From NCBI GenBank assembly GCA_951406725.2, contig OX597815.1, forward strand, positions 28,768,001 to 28,832,000: 64,000 bases of DNA, given 5' to 3'. The position numbers and the translations under genes were made by a program. Of this stretch, positions 3,046 through 60,424 are shown in pieces. Source of the DNA: Octopus vulgaris (taxonomy: Eukaryota). The notes beneath the pieces are model-generated. The model ran no database searches. It had not been told where the DNA came from and saw only the letters and a list, made by a program, of their open reading frames with translations. Position 1 is the first letter of the stretch. The number at the start of each line of letters is the position of its first letter.

Positions 3046-3351
3046 TACACATACACACACACAAACACACTTTGTAAACAAACTTAAAAGCACTGAGTGA
3101 GCTGGTATTCAACATAAAATAAAAGATTTCTCAAACACAGAATGTCTGTGAAAACAGCTTAGAAAATCGGGTAAATACTCTTTAGAAGAAGGGAAAAAGT
3201 GGCCAGCCAGTCTCTACAGAGAATCGAAGACTGATCGTTCTCTATCATTAAGCTAAGACATCCCTGATGACAAATACTGTCAGCCGCGATTTTTTTCCGT
3301 CTCCCAGGTAAGTAGGTAGGTAGGTAGGTAGGTATGCATTCATGCATAAAC

Positions 3352-12428: not shown

Positions 12429-13330
12429 GTAATCCTCCCAAAAAAACACAACATTAATATTTACAGATTTTCTCTCTCTCTCTCCCTCTCCCTCTCTCTC
12501 TCTTTCTCTCTCACTCACTCTCTCTCTCGCTCTCTCACTCTCTCAATCACTCTCTCTCCCTCTCTCCCTTATCTCTCCCTAGGCGCAGGCGTAGCTGTGT
12601 GGCAAGAAGTTTGCTTCCCAGCCACATGGTTCTGGGTTCGGGTCCACTGAATGGCACCTTGAGCAGGTACCTTCAAATATAGACTCGAGCTGACCAAAGC
12701 CTTGCGAGTGGAATTAGTAGAAAGAAGCCCGTAATCCTCCCCAAAAAACACAACATTGATATTTACAGATTTTCTCTCTCTCTCTCCCTCTCCCTCTCTC
12801 TCTTTCTCTCTCACTCACTCTCTCGCTCTCTCACTCTCTCAATCACTCTCTCTCCCTCTCTCCCTTATCTCTCCCTAGGCGCAGGCGTAGCTGTGTGGCA
12901 AGAAGTTTGCTTCCCAGCCACATGGTTCTGGGTTCGGGTCCACTGAATGGCACCTTGAGCAGGTACCTTCAAATATAGCCTCTTGCTGATCAAAGCCTTG
13001 CGAGTGGAATTAGTAGAAAGAAGCCTACCATATGTGTGCGTGTGTGTATGTATTTTGTGTGTGCGTTTGTGTGTGTATGTGAGTGTGTGTGAGTGTGTTT
13101 GTGTGTGTGAGTATGTGTGTTTGTGCCTTTGTGTTTCTCTCCCACCAATGCTTGACAACCAGTGTTGCTGTGTTAATGTTACCGTAACCTAGCGGTTCAG
13201 GACAAGAGAGCGATAGAATAAGTACCAGGTTTTAGAAAAAAAAGTACTGGAGTCGATTCGTTTGACTAAAAATTCTTCAAGGCGGTGCTCCAGTATGGGT
13301 GCAGCCTAATGGCTGAAACAAGTAAAAAAA
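12429..13330 (+). repeat. ~300-bp local tandem duplication including a family-2 SINE 5' half
   Basis: GTAATCCTCCC..(CT)n..SINE head occurs at 12429 and again at 12731. The second copy continues to the SINE tail at ~13330. Confidence 0.85.
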
Positions 13331-14612: not shown

Positions 14613-15437
14613 TACATTCCTACGTAATAACATATAAAAGACGTACATACATTTTATTCCTATAAAAGTAGGAATGTACATGTATAATGTACAGTAGTGC
14701 ATAGAGACGCAAAATGCAACGACACATTGTGTTTAAACTGCACATATACGTAAATACGCCATAATATTAAGCATTAATTTGTAGATCTTTAGAAATATAC
14801 CTCCTAACATAAATGTATATATATGTATACGTGTGATACGTGAACCAAGATTTTTGAGAGTACATGCAAAAACACTCACGTGTTTATAATAATAAAACAT
14901 GGATATAAATGAGTAAAAAGAAGAGGCAGTAATACAACTAAATACGTAGAGGTAACACTTAAATAGATAAAAGGGAGCATAAAGAAACACAACATAAAAA
15001 GAAATGAATGGAAAGTACAGATGTTTATATAACAGTCAATCTGCAGAGAATGTTTATTCGTAAAAATATTGGTGGAAATTTGGTCAAAAGCAAGAGGTTA
15101 GTATATAAATATCGTGAGCGTAATAAGTGTTAGGATACAATAAAGGATAGTATGCGTTGGCTTATAACGTAAATCAGACATTAATAAAGTATTAATGGCT
15201 GAGGATGGTACACGAGCAGGCACATAAAAACAAAATATTTATTCATAAAATACATGGAAGTATAAAAAAGTTGCGCTTTGGTGTATGGGAGAATAATACA
15301 GCGGGCAGACATGTATGCATACTGGGTTAGGGCTGGTGATGGATAGGGAAAATTGTGTGTGTACCAAATTACGGAGACAAAATGGTAACAGACGATAGGG
15401 AAAAGATAAAAGAAGTTACGTACGTACATACATACAT

Positions 15438-15966
15438 CAGTGAAAAAGAGAACACCTATGCTGAACTATTGAGAAATCTGCAGTTACTCTATCCAGATTA
15501 CAAGTTCAGGTTTATACCTGTAATTGTTGTGGTCTTGGGATATGTAACATACTGCCTAAATACCAATCTTGAGAAAGTAGGCTTCTCAACACCAGAAAGG
15601 AGAAAGCTAATTCGAAGACTACAGATCCAATCCATCACTGAAACTGTAAAAATCTGTAAAACTTTCCAGAAGTTTATCATCTAAATATATATGAGCATGT
15701 CTAGATATGTAACTATATGCATGAAAATGCATACATAAAACGTACATACATACAGAAACACATACATACGTACGTACGTATACACATACATAGGTACGTA
15801 ATACATACATACATACATACATACATACATACATACATACATACATACATACAACAAAGCACTGTCGATGTTTTTGAAATTCCAATGAAGGAGCCTTGGA
15901 TCTAGGTTAGAAACCGGCTCCTTCTCTATTAGCAAGAAATCTTGAAATAAACTGGATAATGACATA
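15438..15966 (+). mobile_element. 5'-truncated RLE-type non-LTR retrotransposon (R4/Dong-like) associated with (TACA)n
   Basis: KENTYAELLRNL..FIPVIVVVLGYV..L..NLEKVG..IRRLQ..VKICKTF* resembles the R4/Dong C-terminus (K..KY..L..IP++.GALG..Q..KI). 3' UTR hairpin GAAGGAGCC..GGCTCCTTC. Begins right after TACATACATACAT. Confidence 0.7.
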
Positions 15967-18038: not shown

Positions 18039-18304
18039 TGATACGTATATATGCATATGCATATACGTATATATGCATGTATGTATGTATGTATGTATGT
18101 GTGTATGTATGTAAATTAATGTTTGTTTTTTTATGCCGGATCATAATTTTTTTTTTAAATTACATTACACTGAAGGATTACTCAATACTTTTTCGCAGGC
18201 TGAAACATCGAAATCACTGTTACCATATATTATAAAAAGTATAATGCGCGAGCGCATATGGGTTGGTGTGGGTGGTGGTGGCGACTATGTGTGTGTGCAG
18301 CTGC

Positions 18305-27642: not shown

Positions 27643-28309
27643 GGTCATATGTGTGTGTGTGTACATATATACATTACATGCAAATATATACACATACACA
27701 CACATATAAGGGATAAAATATTTGGTGTTAATTATAAACTAAACGGAATCGTAAGATTTCATCGGCTGGTGTTAGTTTGATACTACAAGTTTAAAGTAAC
27801 TGGATAGGCTGTATTGTATGGCAAAGTATTTTTAAATTGACGTTTTATGAAGAAGGATATCATACATGCAGCCATGCGATCATGAAACAGATATTACTAC
27901 ATTTCGGAATGTTGTAGGAATATCCACCATTTTCATCACGACTTGTATCTCCTTACAGTGATTCTTAACAACTTTCAGATAAACGTGACATTCTTGCATC
28001 TAAATAGACGTGTGAAACCTACAGCTGTGGAATTACACTCCGTATCCGAAAATAACAACAAAAAACGTCTCAAGACTTTTATTTTACGTACGCCTCATTG
28101 CAAATATGCAGTCGAGACATCATGAAGTTAACTAGCGAACAACAATATTGAATATTACGGTACAAGCGAATTAACTTTGATTTTGTTCTTGTTTCAGAAG
28201 TAAGATTAAAAGCTTGTTAGGAATTTTATTCATTTTTGTCCCTCCTCTTCAATGAAAAGGAAAACACTCCTTATATATAAGGAAAAACAAACATATCCAT
28301 TCTTTAGAA

Positions 28310-28715
28310 TATTGGTTTCAAATTTTGGCACAAGTCCAGCAAATTCGGGAAAAAGAGTAAGTAGATTACACGTAATCTATTCCAGTGCTCAACTGGTACT
28401 TTTTCTATTGACCGCGAAAGGATGAAAGACAAAGTCGACGTTGGCATAATTTGAACTCAGAACGTAACGGCAAACGAAATACCTATTTATTTACTACCCA
28501 CAAGGGGCTAAACACAGAGAGGACAAACAAGGACAGACAAACGGATTAAGTCGATTACATCGACCTTCAGTGCGTAACTGGTACTTAATTTATCGACCCC
28601 GAAAGGATGAAAGGCAAAGTCAACTTCGGCGGAATTTGAACTCAGAACGTAACAGCAGACGAAATACGGCTACGCATTTTGCCCGGCATGCTAACGATTC
28701 TGCCAACTCGCCGTC
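28310..28715 (-). mobile_element. SINE family 1 head-to-tail dimer
   Basis: Junction (reverse complement) AAATAG|GTATTTCG at ~28480. Confidence 0.85.
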
Positions 28716-29612
28716 TTATTTAAAAAGTGGTCAGCAAACCGTTCCAGAGAATCGAACCCTGCACCTTTCAAATTCTGGCTGAGCGCACTGTATCATTAAA
28801 CAAAGCAAACCATAACCGTTCTCTGGAATATTAACATTCGCTGATATGTTCGTTATAATGAGCCCCCATTTCTTTAATCGCCGTCATCATGGTCACCCAC
28901 TTCACCATCATCATCATCATCATCATCATCGTCGTCGTCGTCGTCGTCGTCGTCATCATCTTCTTCTTCTTCTTCTTTTCAATCAGTATAAACTTATACC
29001 GTTATCAGTATAAGTTTACTCCCCACTCTAAATTTGTATGAATAAACAGAATTGTTACCTACGGAGAGCGAAGTAGCCGAAGTACTAAAGTGTTGAACAA
29101 GGTACTCTTTTACGTTCTGAGTTCAAATACTGCTGTAGCCAAATTTGCTTTTCTTCATTCCGGGGGTTACCATTTGCTAACGCTACACAATATCTTTTTC
29201 CTTTCCTTGCTCTCCTGCCTATATAAATATGAGAAAATGACACGTGAGATTACCGGACAGAATGTTTTACAATATATAGTAGCGTCTCTGTACGTTCTGA
29301 GATCAAATCCTGCTGGGTTTGATATTGTCTTTTTATCTTATGAGGTCAATAAAATATATACCTGATATATACCATGTATAAATCGACTATGTTCCTTTCT
29401 CCTATCTTAAAACCTTCAATTTAAGTTACATGTTATTGTTGTAATTTTTGTTGGAGTAGAATTAATAGAGCGCCAGAAATGTTGTTCAGTCTTTAGTTTC
29501 GTTCCTTTATATTCTAAATCCAGATCGCATCTAAGTCAACTTTGCCTTATAATTTTGAATGCGGAGTCGAGTCCTGCGTGAATGCAAGGTATGCAATGCT
29601 TGCGTAACATAT

Positions 29613-31692: not shown

Positions 31693-31889
31693 TTGACTTT
31701 GTGTCTATGTCAAAGATAATTATTATTACTATGAGACTGATGATCGACAATGCGAGTCTCAATTCCAACACCATTTAACCTCTTAGGTAACAATTCAGAT
31801 GTTGTGTCAAGTACACCAATAACCTCTGGATTCATTGTCGCCTTTATCACCCACATATCTCCGTCTAGGTGCTGATATATTTCAATTTC

Positions 31890-32123
31890 GAAGGCGTCGA
31901 CCTGGCAGAAACGTTAGCGCGCCGGGCGAAATGCTTAGCGGTATTTCGTCTGTCGCTACGTTCTGAGTTCAAATTCCGCCGAGGTCGACTTTGCCTTTCA
32001 TCCTTTCGGGGTCGATTAAATAAGTACCAGTTACGCACTGGGGTCGATGTAATCGACTTAATCCGTTTGTCTGTCCTTGTTTGTCCTCTCTGTGTTTAGC
32101 CCCTTGTGGGCAGTAAAGAAATA
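31890..32123 (+). mobile_element. SINE family 1, full length
   Basis: 16-bp TSD GATATATTTCAATTTC (31874, 32124). Confidence 0.92.
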
Positions 32124-32169
32124 GATATATTTCAATTTCTTTGGTATCCGCTCAATTATCATATAGTTA

Positions 32170-33196
32170 TTCGACGATCTGGCAGTATCGTCAGCGCGTC
32201 GGACAAAATGCATAATGGTATTACTTCCAGCTCTTTTCATTCTGAATTGAAATTCAACCATGTTCAACTTTGCCTTTCGGAGCTTGCTAAAATAAGTACC
32301 AGTTGAGCAGTGGAGTCGATGTCATTGACTTATCCTTTCCCCTAAAAATACTTTGTCTTTCATCCTTCCGGGGTCGAAAAATCAAATACCAGTAAAACAC
32401 TGGGGTCGATGACTATTAATGATATTAATAATAATAAGGCGAGCGCTGGACGAAATGCTTAACGATATTTCGCAGCCGCTATATTCTGAGTTCAAATCCT
32501 GCCGAAGTCGACTTTGCTTTTCATCCTTTTGGGATCGATGAAATAAGTACTAGTTACGCACTGGGACTGATGTAATCAACTAGTCCCCCATCCAATTTCA
32601 GGCCTTGTGCCTACAGTAGAAAGGATCATTATTATTATTGTTAATAAGGCGACGAGCTGACAGAATCGTTAGCACGCCGGGCGAAATGCTTAGCGGTATT
32701 TCGCCTGTCGCTACGTTCTGAGTTCAAATTCCGCTGAGGTCGACTTTGCCTTTCATCTTTTCGGGGTCGATAAATTAAGTACAAGTTGAGCACTGGGGTT
32801 GATGTAATCGACTTGTAAACCCCCCCCCACAAAGTTTCAGGCCTTGTGCCTTTTAATAGAAATTATTATTATTATTATTGGTGAGCTGGCAGAATTGTTA
32901 GTGCGCTGGACGAAATGTTTAGCGGCATTTCGCCCGCCGCTACGTTCTGAGTTCATATTCCGCCGAGATCGACTTTGCCTTTCATCCAAAATTTCGGCGA
33001 CGAGCTGGCAGAATCGTTAGCACACCGGGCTAAATGCTTAATGATATTTTGTCCGTTTTTACGTTCTGAGTTCAAATTCCGCCAAGATCATCCTTTCGGG
33101 GTTGATAAATTAAGTACTAGTGAAACGCTGGGGTCGATGTAATCAACTAATCCCCTCCCCACAAAATTTCATGGTCTTGTGCTTATAGTAGAAAAG

Positions 33197-33250
<54 letters not shown>
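32170..33250 (+). mobile_element. co-oriented array of ~6 family-1 SINEs separated by (TTA)n
   Basis: Heads at ~32175, 32438, 32648, 32880 and 32996, with tails ending in ATTATTATT. Confidence 0.85.
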
Positions 33251-36523: not shown

Positions 36524-38580
36524 CTAGCTGAATGGCCCGGCGTTGCCCGGGTTACTGCTGTTCTTATTCAGATTAGTAAACAATAAATATAAAGATATAT
36601 TCTCATAATTATTTGGAAATATCTATATTTTATAAAAAACAAATCCAAATTGTAATGATAAAAAAAATTCGAACTGAAAATTTGTCAATGTTGAAACACC
36701 TCAAGGTAAACAATATTCATTGAGTAATTTTTTTGTTGGTGTCGAATAAATTGTTGTTGCTTCCAACTCGCGAGCATCAACATAGAGTTGGCCGTGGGAG
36801 AAGCATGTAGTAGAGAGATCAAGTGCAACTATCCTGAGATTTGTTAATTGAAATACCAAAACTTAGTTTGAATGGAAGCTGAAGCGTCTTAAATTCAACT
36901 GGAATATCTGTAGGTATGAGAGGAATTTTTAGAATAAAGACATTTTCTCCTTTGTGACTACCTGTTATAATTGTTACTTGTAGGACATGGGGCTTCACGG
37001 AAGTAATAATTAAGCGACATGCGTTACACAGGTGAGCACCCATAATAGGAGCACCCAGTTTTAGTGTCATGTTATGCAGTGGCATCCCAGTGGGTTTAAG
37101 TGTGTTGAGAAATTCAACAGAGTATTGACAACCTGATGTCGATCGACTGTTGTCAATTGATCGAAAAGACATTCCTGATGTATCTGTTAACGTTTGAAGA
37201 AATTCATGATTGAGTTTATCTACCATTTCATTAGTTGAAGCTAGTATAGCTCTTTCACATAGCATGTTTACATCAGTATAATTGACAGATAAATTAGGAA
37301 ATACTTTATCCATAAGATACTTAAAAGAAAGTATCATTTGGCCACATGCAATTTCATGTAGCTGAAGTCTTGAGTTGAGTGCAAATATCCCATTACCAAT
37401 CTTAAGAAGCTCATATGATCACCTTGAAGAAGTACTCTCATATCGCTTGTAAGATGATGTTTTTTCACGTCTCCAAAGGTACGATTTTTTGAAGCATGCA
37501 TTGATCTCATTAACTTTTGACGAAAATGTCCTGCACGAAGAACCGTTACTCCTCCCGTGAGCGTGCTATTGTTTTTTATGTCTTAAAGGGTGCGGTCAAA
37601 TACCTCTGGAGCTCCACGATGTAACATAGTGCACTCATGCCAAACAATGAAACAAGTTTGTTGAAGAACTGTTGCCATTGTAGAGATTTTGGAAATGTGC
37701 ACATCTGAGATTCTTTCATTGCAATGTTTAGAGGGAGCTTGAACATGGAATGAGCAATTCTTTTCTCCATTGAGGAGGGTAGCTGCAATATCAGAAGATG
37801 CAACACTGGAAGAAGGTTAGATTTTATTTCCTCCCATTTAGGATTGCAGGTGAAAGTAGCAAAAAGATCTGGTTTTCCATATGTCCTGACACATGTCCTA
37901 GCATCTTGTGTTTGTTCATGCAGATATCAAGGACCACCTGTGAATGATGATGGAAGGATTATATGTTGCCCCATGTTTTGAATATCACCATCATCATCCT
38001 CAGAGCATCTTGGAGATGAACATAATTTTTAGCCCTTAACTTTTTTTTGATTGTTACAAATGTAGAGGAGGTGCTGACTCTCAACTTTAGCATACATATC
38101 AACCAGGTATTGCCGAAACAGATCACGATACATGTGTAATTGATTTGATTGTTCTGGTCTTAACATCAGTTGGTAAGAATAGAAGTCATTCAACGACATC
38201 TCTTTGTTTGTAATTGGCTTTGTTGTTGCAGGTTCAATCTGTGAAATATTGAATTGATATCCACCTTGTCTATTCCACAAGATAAGAGGATTCTGGAGAG
38301 CATCATAAAAGAGATGAGTCTCTGAAACACGTTTAAGGTTGTTATCTCGAGCGGAGACCCCCTTCCGTCACGAATGACCATGGGTTTGCACCTAGAAAGT
38401 TACCCTCCCAGTCGCCCATGCATACCAGCCTCCTCTCTCCACGCCACCGATGTTATCCAAGGGAAAGAATTATCTCGAGCAAGAATAAGAATATCACGAT
38501 TTTCATGGGGATCACCTACCATTAGGATGGCTACTTCATTAGATGTGGGTTCATTAAAACGGTGTAAAATGTCCTTTACT
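36524..38580 (-). mobile_element. Helitron, internally deleted, pseudogenised Rep/PIF1-helicase
   Basis: 3' end hairpin CCCGGGCAACGCCGGG plus CTAG|T. Helicase peptides ERAILASTNEMVD..EFLNTLKPTGMP..LKLGAPIM..QLPFKLSFGISINKSQ. Rep peptides FNEPTSNEVA..RDI, QYLVDMYAKVE and TFTCNPKW. Confidence 0.95.
38353..38469 (-). mobile_element. 117-bp retroposed fragment inserted in Helitron Rep
   Basis: 11-bp TSD TTATCTCGAGC (38342-38352, 38470-38480). Removing it restores RDILILARDNNLKRVSETHLFYDALQNPL. Confidence 0.85.
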
Positions 38581-41500: not shown

Positions 41501-42019
41501 CGGAGTTAAACGCAGAAGTTATTCAAATCTTTATACTTCCGACTTATGCTTCGAGGAAAACATTGATATTATTCCGGAGGGAATAAAATGTCAAGCAAAG
41601 CAATCATCACGTCAGGAGAAAAAAGAGAAACAAAACACATCAATAAGCCATTTTAGCTGAATGTGATTACCGCGTAAATGATGAAGGGGAACGCTGGCAA
41701 GTTACTTTTTAAAAACCATTAATAGATTTAACGTCAAAGGCAATTTAAAGGAAGTGAAGAAAGAAATTAACAAAAAATTAAGAGTGGAGAAATATAGTGG
41801 GATAGATGAATAGGAATAAAGCTTAAAAGCGTGGAAATAGATATATGTAGTGGAAATGAAATGCAAGGAGACAGTTAAAGGTCAATTTTAAACATCAATG
41901 GAGTTTTATATCGTTATGATTGTCTACTCTACCTTCAAAATGTTTCTAATCAAAAATTACAAGGGGTTAAAAATAGGTTGGTTAAATTTTTCTGAAACAT
42001 TGTTTTCGATGATGATATA

Positions 42020-42535
42020 ACTAAAGCCAACTTTTTGGATATTACCCTTAACTTATATAATGGTTCATATTTCTCATACCATAAACCCTCAACTAATTTA
42101 AAATATATTAGCTCTTTCAGTAATCACTCTAAGGCTATTACAAGGAATTTAGTTAGGAATATTTCACTTAGACTTTCTAGATTATCTGCTAATGTTGATA
42201 TCATCAACGATAAAGCTGAATTTTATAACTCTGCCTTACTTAAAGCAGGCTATAAAGAAAAAATGCCTATTGACATTAATTCTACCTCTATTAATCAGGA
42301 CATGAAAACACGTCATAACGGTAATAACAATATAAATTTTATTTCGAATAACAAGACTAAATCGAAAAATGTAATTTTGCAGCGTAAGTGAGATAACCGT
42401 TCTTTAATTCCCTTTTTACGTTGTAAAAGTAAATCTAGGACCTTTAACGATAATTACCCTAATGACAAGGTATGTCCTAGTAAAAGTGTTTGGTTGATAA
42501 CTCCATATGGTGAGCAGATCAAATCCAACTTCCTT
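42020..42535 (+). pseudogene. Penelope-like element RT C-terminal remnant
   Basis: NFLDITLNLYNGSYFSYHKP..KYISSFSNHS..I..NISLRLSRLS..YNSALLKAGY, later VWLITPYGEQIKSN. Matches the PLE pattern FLD..Y.KP..Y+..SNHP..RLS..Y..AL..GY..WFNPPY. Confidence 0.85.
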
Positions 42536-51628: not shown

Positions 51629-51945
51629 GATGATAGAGAACGGCAACATTTGTTGACGGAACATTATCATAGAGTTAAAGAAGTTATTGCAGTTAGCGAA
51701 ATATGAAGTCATATGTCAGTGTTAGATCAATGAAAGATGGACTGTGTGCAGCGAAGTAAATGTAATTGAAAAACTAACGAGTGAAGTGTTTTGGGACTGA
51801 TGAATTCGAAAGCGGCGTCACAGATGCTGCAGAAACGTTTGGGTATTCTTTTAAATAATAATTTTAAAAAATACGAAGAAAGAAGAAAAGGAAAAGTTAG
51901 TGAGGGGAAACATATCAAAATATGGGTTTTAAAAATAGCAATATT

Positions 51946-52546
51946 TATTTCTTTATTGCCCACAGGGGGCTAAACATAGAGGGGACAAACAAGGACAAAG
52001 GAATTAAGTCGATTATATCGACCCCCAGTACGTAACTGGTACTTATTTAATCGACTCCGGAAGGATGAAAGTCAAAGTCGACCTCGGCGGAATTCGAACT
52101 CAGAACGTAACGGTAGACAAAATACCTATTTCTTTACTACCCACAATGGGCTGAAAACAGAGAGGACAAACAAGGACAGACACACGGATTAAATCGATTA
52201 CATCGACCCCAGTACGTAACTGGTACTTGTTTAATCGACCCCGGAAGGATGAAAGGCAAAGTCGACCTCGGCGGAATTCGAACTCAGAACGTAACGGTAG
52301 ACAAAATACCTATTTCTTTACTAACCACAAGGGGCTGAAAACAGAGAGGACAAACAAGGACAGACACACGGATTAAATCGATTACATCGACCCCAGTGTG
52401 TAACTGGTACTTATTTAATCGACTCCGAAAAGATGAAAGGCAAAGTCGACCTCGGCGGAATTTGAACTCAGAACGTAGCGGCAGACGAAATACCTCTAAG
52501 CATTTCGCCCGGCATGCTTAACGGTTCTACCAGCTCGCTGCCTTTG
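51946..52546 (-). mobile_element. SINE family 1 trimer
   Basis: One full unit plus two ~184-bp units, with a single 14-bp TSD AAAATAGCAATATT (51932, 52547). Confidence 0.9.
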
Positions 52547-54149
52547 AAAATAGCAATATTATGACATTTTTACCCATTTTTCTCTTAGATAGTCCATCAC
52601 ATACAAGCTGTCTATTTTAATAATTGTTTCTAACGTATGTGCAAGGCCTGAAACGTGATAGAAAAGGGAGTTTAATTGATTAATTCAGTTCTAGTACTCG
52701 ACTGGTGCATTATTATATCGACTCCTGAAAGATGAACATAAAAATTCACTTTGGGCGTATTTGAACTCAGGATGTAGAAAGCCATGAGAGATACTGCAAC
52801 GGATTTTTCTAACCCTTCTATTCTGCCGGCTAGATATATAGTGATGGTCATCGTACACATTCACCTTTAAAAGTTTCCTCTTTCTTTTTTCATAGAAACA
52901 TTTACTAGCCTTTCAACTAAACCAAGGCTAGTAAAGTCATATATGCGTGCCGGTTTTATCGTATAATGAACCGTTATTAAGATATTAAAATGCTTGTTTA
53001 CCAGATGCTTTACAAAAGATATAAGCTGAATTGATCAGAAGAGACAAAATGCGAAAATGATCTCCACAGTCTGTCAATGAAAAGGAAACTTTGGTCGAAG
53101 TTTAGAAATATATCACAAGAAAAAGGAGTTTAACAAAATGTCAAATAGATTTGATACATAAAATTACAAGACATATAAGAGAAAGAAACACTTCAGAGCA
53201 TTCAGTAAACTTGTGAGTTTCTTAGAAATATATATATAAGAACGAAAAAACATAAGATAATAAAATCAGTGAGAAATGGTGTAGACGGGCGTTGTTGTTT
53301 GTTGATACCTGAAAAGTTTTGTATCAAATCATTGAAAAATCATAGAAACAGGTGTCTTATGGGTGGAAACTAAAGATCACTTTCAAACAGTAAAATAAAC
53401 TGGGTGGGGAAGCAGGCGTCAAATGTGTGAGAAACTTACAATGTGTCTCAAAGCAACGGGAAATGAAAAGTGTCAAATTTTGAGAAAACAAAGATGAAAC
53501 ATCCTCCCAGAAATACGGAGTAAATGTTATCAAGTTACTTTGAAGTCATTCTCTTAATCTACTATTCTATAGAATACATTTTACCTCTCTGAGATATAAA
53601 AAAAAAAAAAAAAATTAAAAGCACCTTCTCATATATTCGTTCCTTCACGAGTCTTTAACATTTGTTGTTAAGACTTAGCTCTAAAGTGGGGCGGAACCCA
53701 ACGTCTTTATTGTCAAATGATGGATGAGAGAAAGAATAAAGTTAGTGCTTTCAATGTTATTTCTAAATGTTCCTATGTGTTTCTACTGCTTCCTTGACAA
53801 ACCCCTGCCCCGTATCTTCTATAGACAGCCTTTCATTTTCTAATATTGTGTAATTTCTTTGGTGGGTGGATGATATAGTGGTAAATTGTAAACGAACATT
53901 GTTCGCAGTTTCCTCTAAAGCATATCCCCTGTACCTACACTATATTAATGCCTAATATATTAGCTGTGGCAGAGACGCCACAACTTCTAATTTTCATTCC
54001 AATAAATAAAACTCAGCGCTTGAAAGAGAAATATATTTACATTTAGTGTTTAGTCTTCATTATTTATTTGTTTCAGTTAGAGGTTGTGACCCAGCTGGGG
54101 CACCGCCTTGAAGGGCTTAGTCGAACAAATCGATGTGAGCAGCTCAATC

Positions 54150-54550
54150 TATTTGTCTGTCCTAGTTTCTTCCCTCTATGTTTAGCCCCTTGTGGGCAGT
54201 AAAGAAATAAGAAACGTTAGCACGCCGGGCGAAATGCTTAGCGGTATTTCGTCTGTCTACGTTCTGAGTTCAAATTCCGCCGAGGTCGACTTTGCCTTTC
54301 ATCCTTTCGGGGTCGATAAACTAAGTACCAGTTACGCACTGGGGTCGATATAATTAACTTAATCCGTTTGTCTGTCCTTGTTTGTCCCCTCTGTGTTTAG
54401 CCCCTTGTGGGTAGTAAAGAAATAGGTATTTCGTCTGTCTACGTTCTGAGTTCAAATTCCGCCGAGGTCGACTTTACCTTTCATCCTTTCGGGATCGATA
54501 AATTAAGTACCAGTTGAGTACTGGGGTCGATCTAATGGACTGGCCTTCTT
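54150..54550 (+). mobile_element. SINE family 1 multimer
   Basis: Junctions at ~54210 and ~54425 (GAAATAG|GTATTTC). Confidence 0.85.
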
Positions 54551-54659
54551 CCTACAGTACAAAAGAACATAAAAACAAATTATTAGTAGTTATGGACTAT
54601 GATTTGGTGCAGACTTTCAATGTCCGAGTGTAAAGAAACATGTTAAATACATATACGTG

Positions 54660-58619: not shown

Positions 58620-59608
58620 AGGCGATAAGCTGGCAGAAAATCAACACGCCGGGCAAATGGCTTAGCGGAATTTTGTCTACATTTACGTTCTGAGTTCATA
58701 TTCCATCGAAGTCGACAAAATAAATACCAGTTGAACACAGATCGATATAATCAGCTTACTCCTTCCACAAAATCGTTGGCTTTGTGCCAAAATTTGAAAT
58801 CAATATAGTTTCTTCATTTCGGCACAGGACCACACACTAAGGAAAAGACTATAGCTGGTTAAACTGACGCGGTGTATTAACGAGTCGAAAGGTAAAGTCA
58901 GCACCGCCTGGATTTGAACTCAAGGAATAAAAGAGAGTGTGTATTATGTTGATTTCAAACATTCACATATTTAGGGGAAGTATAGACGATTATATTGATT
59001 TCAAATGTTAGCACAAGGGGAAGAAGTAAGTCGATTACATAGGCCCCAGTTTTCAACTGGGTACTTATTTTATCGTCCTCGAAAGAATGAAAGGCAATGT
59101 CGATCTCGGCGGAATTTGAACTCAGAACAAAAAGACGGACGATATGCCGCTAAGAATTTTGACCGGCGTGCTAATGATTCTACTAGCTTGCCGCTTTTAT
59201 AGCTGATTATATTGACCCCCTAAAATGAACATAACTAGTACTTTATTTTATTGACCTCGTAAAAGTTTAACCGCAACGTAGACCCGACGCGGTCGAGGTT
59301 TGAACGTAAAACATAAAATGACGTCCCGATATATCAAAATTCATTTTGTGCGTTGTTTTAACGATTCTCGAAGACCTATTTCTTTACTACCCACAAGGGG
59401 CTAAACACAGAGGGGACAAACAAGGACAGACAAACGGATTAAGTCGATTACATCGACCCCAGTGCATAACTGGTACTTATTTAATCGACCCCGAAAGGAT
59501 GAAAGGCAAAATCGACCTCGGCGGAATTTGAACTCAGAACGTAACGGCAGGCGAAATACCGCTAAGCATTTCGCCCGACGTGCAAACGTTTCTGCCAGCT
59601 CGCCGCCT
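58620..59608. mobile_element. cluster of family-1 SINEs (best copy 59376-59608, minus strand)
   Basis: Several consensus matches in both orientations. Confidence 0.8.
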
Positions 59609-60233: not shown

Positions 60234-60424
60234 AGGTATTTCGTCTGTCGTTACGTTGTGAGTTCAAATTCCGCCGAGGTTGACTTTGCCTTTCATCCTT
60301 TCGAGGTCGATAAATTAAGTACCAGTTACGCACTGGGGCTCGATGTAATCGACTTAATACCTATGTCTGTCCTTGTTTGTCCCCTCTATGTTTAGCCCCT
60401 TCTGGGTAATAAAGAAATAGGTAT
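60234..60424 (+). mobile_element. headless family-1 SINE monomer
   Basis: Begins and ends with AGGTAT, at the multimer junction position. Confidence 0.85.

Follow-up and report, generated by a model that had tools for sequence, protein, structure and literature searches.

A recurrent junction inside the head of SINE multimers in a 64-kb stretch of the Octopus vulgaris genome, a variant of known SINE multimer formation

Head-to-tail dimers and trimers are frequent among the rodent and bat SINEs B2, Dip and Ves, where families are mixed within one multimer (PMC8466645), and nearly half of the Dip copies reside in multimers (PMC8466645; PMC10702118). The authors of the B2 study left undecided whether multimers arise by insertion into an older copy or from dimeric templates (PMC8466645). 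Dip multimers consist of full-length units, for which integration into the tail is one proposed route (PMC10702118), whereas in the SINEs described here the join falls inside the head, at one base, and the downstream units are headless. Another close system is that of the R2 proteins, where seamless 5′ joins formed by annealing of the cDNA to upstream target homology dominate full-length transgene insertions (PMC11371274). Both show seamless in-register joins through homology between template and target at either end, as well as fusions with extra templates; the R2 system is engineered, directed to the rDNA and driven by a site-specific enzyme (PMC11371274), whereas here the target is the SINE family itself and the only trace of the enzyme is an insertion motif. 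Dimeric SINEs of the Alu type likewise carry two related modules behind one working head (PMC3531059), in contrast to the present loci, where no second module is fixed, the last unit is a different one at each of three loci and monomers prevail in the window. Metazoan non-LTR retrozymes form short tandem arrays of 150-300 bp units with a G+C content under 50%, similar to those seen here, and require hammerheads (PMC7761336), whereas the present units have no hammerhead and no unusually stable fold, and belong to a SINE with a head and ordinary TSD-flanked monomers. Finally, the SINE-derived satellites of squamates are tandem repeats of a SINE part for which unequal recombination has been invoked (PMC10702118); here there are 2-3 units (3.0 copies, not a long array) and one junction recurs at dispersed loci with different partners. 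The families concerned are not named in the available parts of PMC3531059, PMC4824008, PMC5804259 and PMC13282606, and no published account of this arrangement or its motifs was found in a search of main texts, mostly of papers outside subscription. The junction is a real, recurrent variant of known SINE multimer formation.

The window, that is the whole stretch of 64 kb that was analysed, contains 42 matches to a profile of a shared SINE head and centre, and most copies are monomers. The related SINEs are split by their tails into families for which the labels X, Y1 and Y2 were introduced in this analysis: X tails end in AAAGAAATA and X copies lie 1-8% from their consensus, while Y1 and Y2 copies lie 11-35% from theirs. 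With 104,480 matching contigs in the public run X15 and 272,769 in X9 (contigs, not loci), this is a repeat of at least 100 copies. TSDs of about 14-17 bp, as expected of SINEs, were found at seven of the nine elements searched beside the 5′ end; the TSD at 18039 is offset within a microsatellite and the element at 60235 has just 5-6 nt. A-box-like and B-box-like stretches were recognised in the head from the box consensus. ARAGORN returned no tRNA genes, and Rfam, searched over the window, gave nothing at gathering score, chance-level matches at the loci and no tRNA match. The central region may resemble a Meta-type domain. Exact-motif scans of metagenome contigs, prokaryote genomes and viral contigs found 0 loci. 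Regarding a LINE partner sharing the X tail, three LINE-like pieces among the 58 ORFs were scanned and none was linked to the tail; one of them gave a weak RVT_1 match (1465-2022), below the cut-off. ORF fragments at 267-2441, 15340-15684, 36819-38367 and 41996-42391 presumably belong to LINE, Helitron and other mobile-element proteins.

The longest of the multimers is a minus-strand trimer made of a head of ~50 bp and units of 184, 184 and 181 bp inside a 14-bp TSD. The unit length of about 184 bp and the single 14-bp TSD of the original prediction were both borne out: a period of 184 bp with 3.0 copies and 91% matches runs through 51946-52495, and the stretches 51932-51945 and 52547-52560 are identical. 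The parts are as follows.

52547-52560, minus strand: 5′ copy of the 14-bp TSD, exact match to 51932-51945
52495-52543, minus strand: 5′ part of the SINE head, with A-box-like stretch, 5′ arm and loop of the hairpin (alignment, column-to-coordinate map)
52482-52511, minus strand: head hairpin, 13 bp with a 4-nt loop (covariation, folding)
52311-52494, minus strand: unit 1, with B-box-like stretch, shared central region and family-X tail ending AAAGAAATA (period search, alignment, column map)
52127-52310, minus strand: unit 2, headless, 5′ part like unit 3 and 3′ part like unit 1 (column comparison)
51946-52126, minus strand: unit 3, headless, tail of a different family-X subtype (column comparison)
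52023-52390, no strand assigned: out-of-register tandem duplicate across the junction, 52023-52206 and 52207-52390, with 5 differences in 184
51932-51945, minus strand: 3′ copy of the TSD, starting AATAT, exact match to 52547-52560

The repeat unit starts at 52494, the first base of the 3′ arm of the head hairpin. Joins of a tail to GGTATTT were present at all four sites at which they had been announced.

52311|52310, 52127|52126 and 28484|28483, minus strand: tail-to-GGTATTT joins
54424|54425, plus strand: tail-to-GGTATTT join

The junction 12-mer AAATA|GGTATTT (AAATAGGTATTT) occurs four times, at three loci, against 0.045 expected in the 64-kb window, and the idea that the junction recurs non-randomly and calls for a mechanism is supported; the evidence on that mechanism comes from these three loci within one window. 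The description of "one exact palindromic junction" proved too strong, as the full inverted repeat GAAATA-GG-TATTTC stands at only one of the four junctions (at 54417), and the 17-mer suggested for counting, AAGAAATAGGTATTTCG, has there its single occurrence in the window. Both trimer junctions read ...GGTATTTTG and the one at 28484 reads TAAATA. The cut itself, first drawn as GAAATAG|GTATTT, has been corrected to GAAATA|GGTATTT because all 15 family-X tails end in AAATA. These 15 tails (14 from a pattern search and one added separately) continue into GGTATTT(C/T)G in four cases at three loci, into AGAAACG in one and into flanking DNA in ten. The join to AGAAACG (54209|54210) defines a second junction class, without the inverted repeat, that was also seen in the runs X9 and X15. 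A truncated copy inserted behind an older tail may be the source of this class, and X9 has varied letters between the two parts. For the main junction, a new truncated copy behind an older tail was rejected, because the outer TSDs start with AATAT instead of GGTAT and because, at 28483, it is the last unit that is older.

Four public runs were searched with the monomer 31855-32160, and the junction was seen in three of them (X21, X15 and X9) and not among the matches listed for X22. The joint of tail position 32123 to 31940 was found in one of the 21 matched raw DNA reads of X21, in at least 18 contigs of X15, with at least 6 and at least 6 others at adjacent offsets, and in at least 3 plus 1 contigs of X9, a run from a different organism. 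All such counts derive from the matches listed (15 of 387 for joints, 12 of 310 for letters between, 22 of 725 for loose ends), refer to contigs, not loci, and cover X15 and X9 in part. The junction is thus present in DNA outside this assembly too, and seems to be common in organism A. In X21 and X22, matches were limited to 21 and 234 of 12.9 million reads each, far too few for so dense a repeat, so that these runs serve for presence only; contigs cannot separate an RNA circle from a genomic dimer, and the X15 counts carry no expression meaning. X9 has a second class, from the tail to about 31907-31914 with varied letters between (at least 5 and at least 4 contigs, in two of the entries listed), and the tail in front of 31940 is not among the six loose-end classes listed for it.

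The two other loci are composites of units from different families.

28802-28832, minus strand: 31-nt direct repeat (80.6%) with 28284-28313, around a 98-bp leader, the head and both units
28484-28717, minus strand: head of mixed family states and young family-X unit, 7/179 from consensus
28314-28483, minus strand: headless unit of the older family Y2, 26/161 from consensus
54130-54209, plus strand: piece of a family-X tail, running into the AGAAACG of the following head (second junction class)
54210-54424, plus strand: partial head and young family-X unit, 5/178 from consensus
54425-54575, plus strand: headless unit with Y1-like tail, decayed and internally deleted, end approximate (divergence, profile, alignment)

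At 28.5 kb, the X unit is 3.9% diverged (7/179) and the Y2 unit 16% (26/161; Fisher p=1.7e-4), the latter being as diverged as six other Y2 copies (15.5-32%). The 31-nt repeat, a 17-nt score of which was reached by 25 of 5000 random stretches, is likely an old TSD. Because the X unit is younger than the Y2 unit and the bracketing repeat is likely old, the X unit looks like a later addition to an old insertion, and the locus reads, at the level of its sequence, as a young unit placed within it. In the head at 28717, columns 34 and 52 are in the Y state and columns 59 and 64 in the X state, which counts towards the same arrangement. The 98-bp leader (28718-28815, minus strand) ends in a T run and separates the old direct repeat from the SINE head. 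At its 3′ end, 35 nt match 3194-3228 at 80% (related stretch 3194-3300, minus strand). Rfam gave no match to the leader, which may represent a further small element of the Pol III type, joined on as an extra template.

At 54.2-54.5 kb, both units carry one 2-nt deletion that is absent from 22 other aligned copies. Measured from the junction site, the deletion comes after 15 nt, a distance that a TSD of usual length (about 14-17 bp) would span, and its presence in both units would be expected if the start of each copies the old target. Upstream, at 54070-54209, an X tail piece adjoins, at TCGA, a SINE of another family on the opposite strand, a fusion that no TSD explains; the 3′ end of the piece continues into the AGAAACG of the next head. 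The claim of recurring headless units needs qualification: units of ~184 bp do recur, and the second ones at 28483 and 54425 carry tails of two other families. As the last units differ at all three loci (Y2, Y1-like and the tail of another X subtype), two of the mechanisms first proposed are contradicted, namely rolling reverse transcription of one circle, which predicts last units equal to the earlier ones, and a single fixed multimeric master.

The sites chosen by ordinary copies bear on the junction. The flanks after the ten remaining X tails read AATAT, GGTTA, GATAT, TGTAT, GGTAT, GGTCT, AATAT, TATAT, TATAT and TATAT. N-R-T-A-T follows the tail directly at eight of these ten non-junction insertions, and at nine if 59608 is read from its 5′ TSD copy; with a background of 0.033, nine of ten gives p=4e-13 for a motif that was derived from the ten tested copies themselves and not from the junctions. 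The older Y2 copies also show it, with AATAT after their tails. Within the element, GGTAT or CGTAT at the junction is the sole sense-strand N-R-T-A-T (both of the two copies checked), and the solo copy 59377-59608 lies in TAGC^GGTATT, which mimics the head site, and has a 17-bp TSD (14/17). Since the junction site is the ordinary target motif of the element, the junction looks like a normal 3′ insertion junction in a SINE head. The ATA/TAT half of the palindrome, which forms at nine of the ten other insertions, is generic. Head sites took 3 of 14 events but make up 12 of 4173 RTAT sites (p=8e-6), and GGTAT events fell at head sites in three of five cases vs 12 of 108 GGTAT sites (p=0.012). This excess means that a five-base preference is insufficient and that an extra factor is needed, be it longer homology, the hairpin or donors that already bear the junction.

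The best reading of these data, and on balance a probable one, is target-primed insertion into existing SINE heads with an in-register 5′ join, followed by local duplication. It builds on the observed target preference, the sole matching site in the element, the older or foreign last units and the outer duplications. A new SINE copy would be reverse-transcribed, presumably by a LINE enzyme, at a putative nick before GGTAT, the favoured N-R-T-A-T site that a SINE already in place, of its own or a related family, carries in its head; the 5′ end of the copy would then pair, in register, with the matching head sequence upstream. This would leave one head, one new 184-bp unit and the remainder of the old element, all within the TSD of the old element. 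In the trimer, a dimer of this kind would later have undergone local duplication over its junction. RNAs transcribed from dimers already present would have GGUAUUUCG after the tail, which might make the targeting more precise. As in homology-directed joins of the R2 type, the X and Y heads can be aligned and the passage from head to unit 1 shows no scar. In X15, 6 of the 30 contigs listed at the joint have A for the first G, a state present in two of seven Y heads, which also counts for this reading. Further, X22 contains arrays of a tail piece plus 13 nt of the head site (at least 29 and at least 20 reads) and, beside them, arrays of a tail piece plus an unrelated spacer starting GGAAT (at least 12 and at least 13 reads). 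Both kinds look like repeats of an insert plus its TSD and were counted in favour, with internal deletion as an alternative source of the head-site arrays. Over 32058-32128, a large part of the few X22 reads that matched consists of short-period arrays, with a spacer of 13 nt or about 16 nt.

Several observations count against insertion into the head site in this plain form. The window yielded no case of an out-of-register insertion at the head site GGTATTTCG flanked by both TSD copies. At 28483, the first 36 nt of the unit look young (1/36 vs 16/80, p=0.02, post hoc), contrary to the wholly old unit that a nick at the junction predicts, and the head at 54210 has the X state at column 34 despite a Y1-like last unit. 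In the trimer, unit 3 combines the 5′ mark T141 with the tail subtype A223, which goes with A141 in all four other copies, and this mix is a switch inside the last unit; besides, no preserved inner TSD is visible, because units 1 and 2 have three differences in their first 17 nt. The young start at 28483, the mix in unit 3, the X mark at 54210 and the missing inner TSD fit junction-bearing donors that pair beyond the junction. Such donors, one or a few dimeric source copies or their read-through RNAs, would turn monomers of any related family into dimers. The route would be homology-primed reverse transcription, copy-choice or ectopic gene conversion, and the switch points could lie at any place in the shared region. 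The GG bias at non-junction targets (GGTAT in 2/9 vs 108/4173, p=0.02) points the same way, as does the largest loose-end class listed for X15, the tail in front of 31940 (at least 534 contigs, agreement 0.89). As a full account it is nevertheless rather unlikely: a first junction is still required, the identity of the site with the general insertion motif, which older Y2 copies show too, is left unexplained, and the differences among last units at all three loci exclude one fixed dimer that was inserted through ordinary priming. Insertion into existing heads and donation by read-through RNAs of dimers could feed each other. Pop-out and re-entry of a one-unit DNA circle was rejected; it requires a shared crossover point, and there is none at 28.5 or 54.3 kb.

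For the trimer, the suspicion that one unit is a local duplicate was confirmed. The middle unit is a mosaic that agrees with unit 3 vs unit 1 at eight columns, 71 to 161, and with unit 1 vs unit 3 starting at column 169, each direction having one exception. The out-of-register segments differ at only 5 of 184 positions, while units compared in register differ at 12 and 22 alignment columns, a pattern counted for insertion into a head plus duplication. Local duplication across an existing junction would account for it most cheaply, with unequal exchange or slippage as the presumable cause. Two turns of a circle entering an old copy would leave the same pattern, and a 184-nt headless circular RNA, copied for one turn or more and entering related SINEs by homology without a ribozyme, has to be weighed here. 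The order seen in the trimer (old 5′ part, two identical turns, old 3′ part) fits it as well as it does local duplication, and the identical first 53 columns of the units at 54.2-54.5 kb, together with their common deletion, fit more than one turn. On the other hand, the young part at 28717 begins upstream of the unit, in the head that a headless circle lacks, no array in the window exceeds three units, and the structural searches gave it little: the hammerhead core CUGANGA is absent from both strands of the trimer, no Rfam ribozyme was found at E values up to 10 and no match was credible, and the one unit tested folds no more stably than its shuffles (z -0.58, 60 of 200 shuffles equal). Taken together, such a circle is highly improbable.

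RNA folding bears on the proposed pairing of the tail with the internal UAUUUC, which did not hold in the form suggested. In full-length copies its probability was 0.0 in eight of eight, because the head hairpin holds the hexamer (0.79-1.0 in seven of eight). The predicted pairing reached 0.63 and 0.37 in two of six headless linear units and 0.07 or less in the other four, and in circles it was 0.08 or less in all six, which also weighs against a circle. Pairing is thus possible only in headless units, and requires a prior cut at the hairpin apex. The hairpin itself has 13 pairs with 90.9% of 241 cells paired, and its closing pair varies (U-G 12, G-C 5, U-A 2); in a shuffle control, which ignores relatedness, the paired share was reached by 4 of 500 and the covariation score by 27 of 500. 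Structure-guided jumping, or ligation after a cut at this apex, is a further candidate. The SINE RNA would be cut there and the 3′ piece starting GGUAUUUCG would be ligated behind the tail of another SINE RNA, or the reverse transcriptase would jump to it. The first base of the unit does coincide with that of the 3′ arm of a 13-bp hairpin whose closing pair covaries, two of the six headless units are predicted to pair through their tails, and the leader at 28.8 kb ends in a T run like an extra template, such fusions being known for R2 (PMC11371274). A lone piece of exactly this extent also exists, in agreement with the original description of the copy at 60234-60424 as one unit.

60235-60419, plus strand: single headless unit followed by GGTAT

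This piece, which has GGTAT on either side, would be explained most simply as a 5′-truncated insertion joined through its own 5-6 nt GGTAT target duplication. Cutting and joining of RNA is improbable nonetheless: a single event would give units of one age, yet X and Y2 have diverged to different degrees (p=1.7e-4); lone cut pieces should have unrelated flanks, and the X15 loose ends listed at 31940 are nearly all tail; and an RNA 3′ end would be needed exactly at GAAAUA, where no terminator is evident. A combined version is very improbable, in which the 184-nt piece released by the cut would either circularise without a ribozyme or ligate to another SINE RNA, and a LINE enzyme would copy the product and insert it by homology into relatives. 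The match between unit start and hairpin apex has found no explanation and is what sustains the circle as a reading.

If insertion into existing heads is correct, this SINE family would partly home into its relatives, with 4 of the 15 tails of the window (three loci) joined to the head site, and young tails would stand behind old heads without a visible scar. This would provide a route for shuffling heads, bodies and tails among these families and a natural counterpart of the homology-annealed 5′ joins of R2. The question left undecided for rodent multimers (PMC8466645) would then become testable by unit age and head diagnostics. Repeat annotation and age estimates would misread such chimeras. 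A circle, if true, would be a new kind of mobile RNA, a promoterless circular parasite of a linear SINE family, and the evidence leans against it.

Other repeats of the window show further forms of clustering. Four head-to-tail Y-type copies, one of them cut short, lie at 32436-33230, mostly joined via ATT repeats and ending in (ATT)18, a row that suggests repeated insertion into the tail of the previous copy. Three nested layers are visible at 58990-59608, with a young X copy near the head of a very old copy and a Y2 copy directly after. A 296-bp unit is present in two tandem copies, 96% alike, at 12429-13025. A further SINE family, which has the last part of the central region in common and a fourth kind of tail, is found at 13210, 48112 and 60758.
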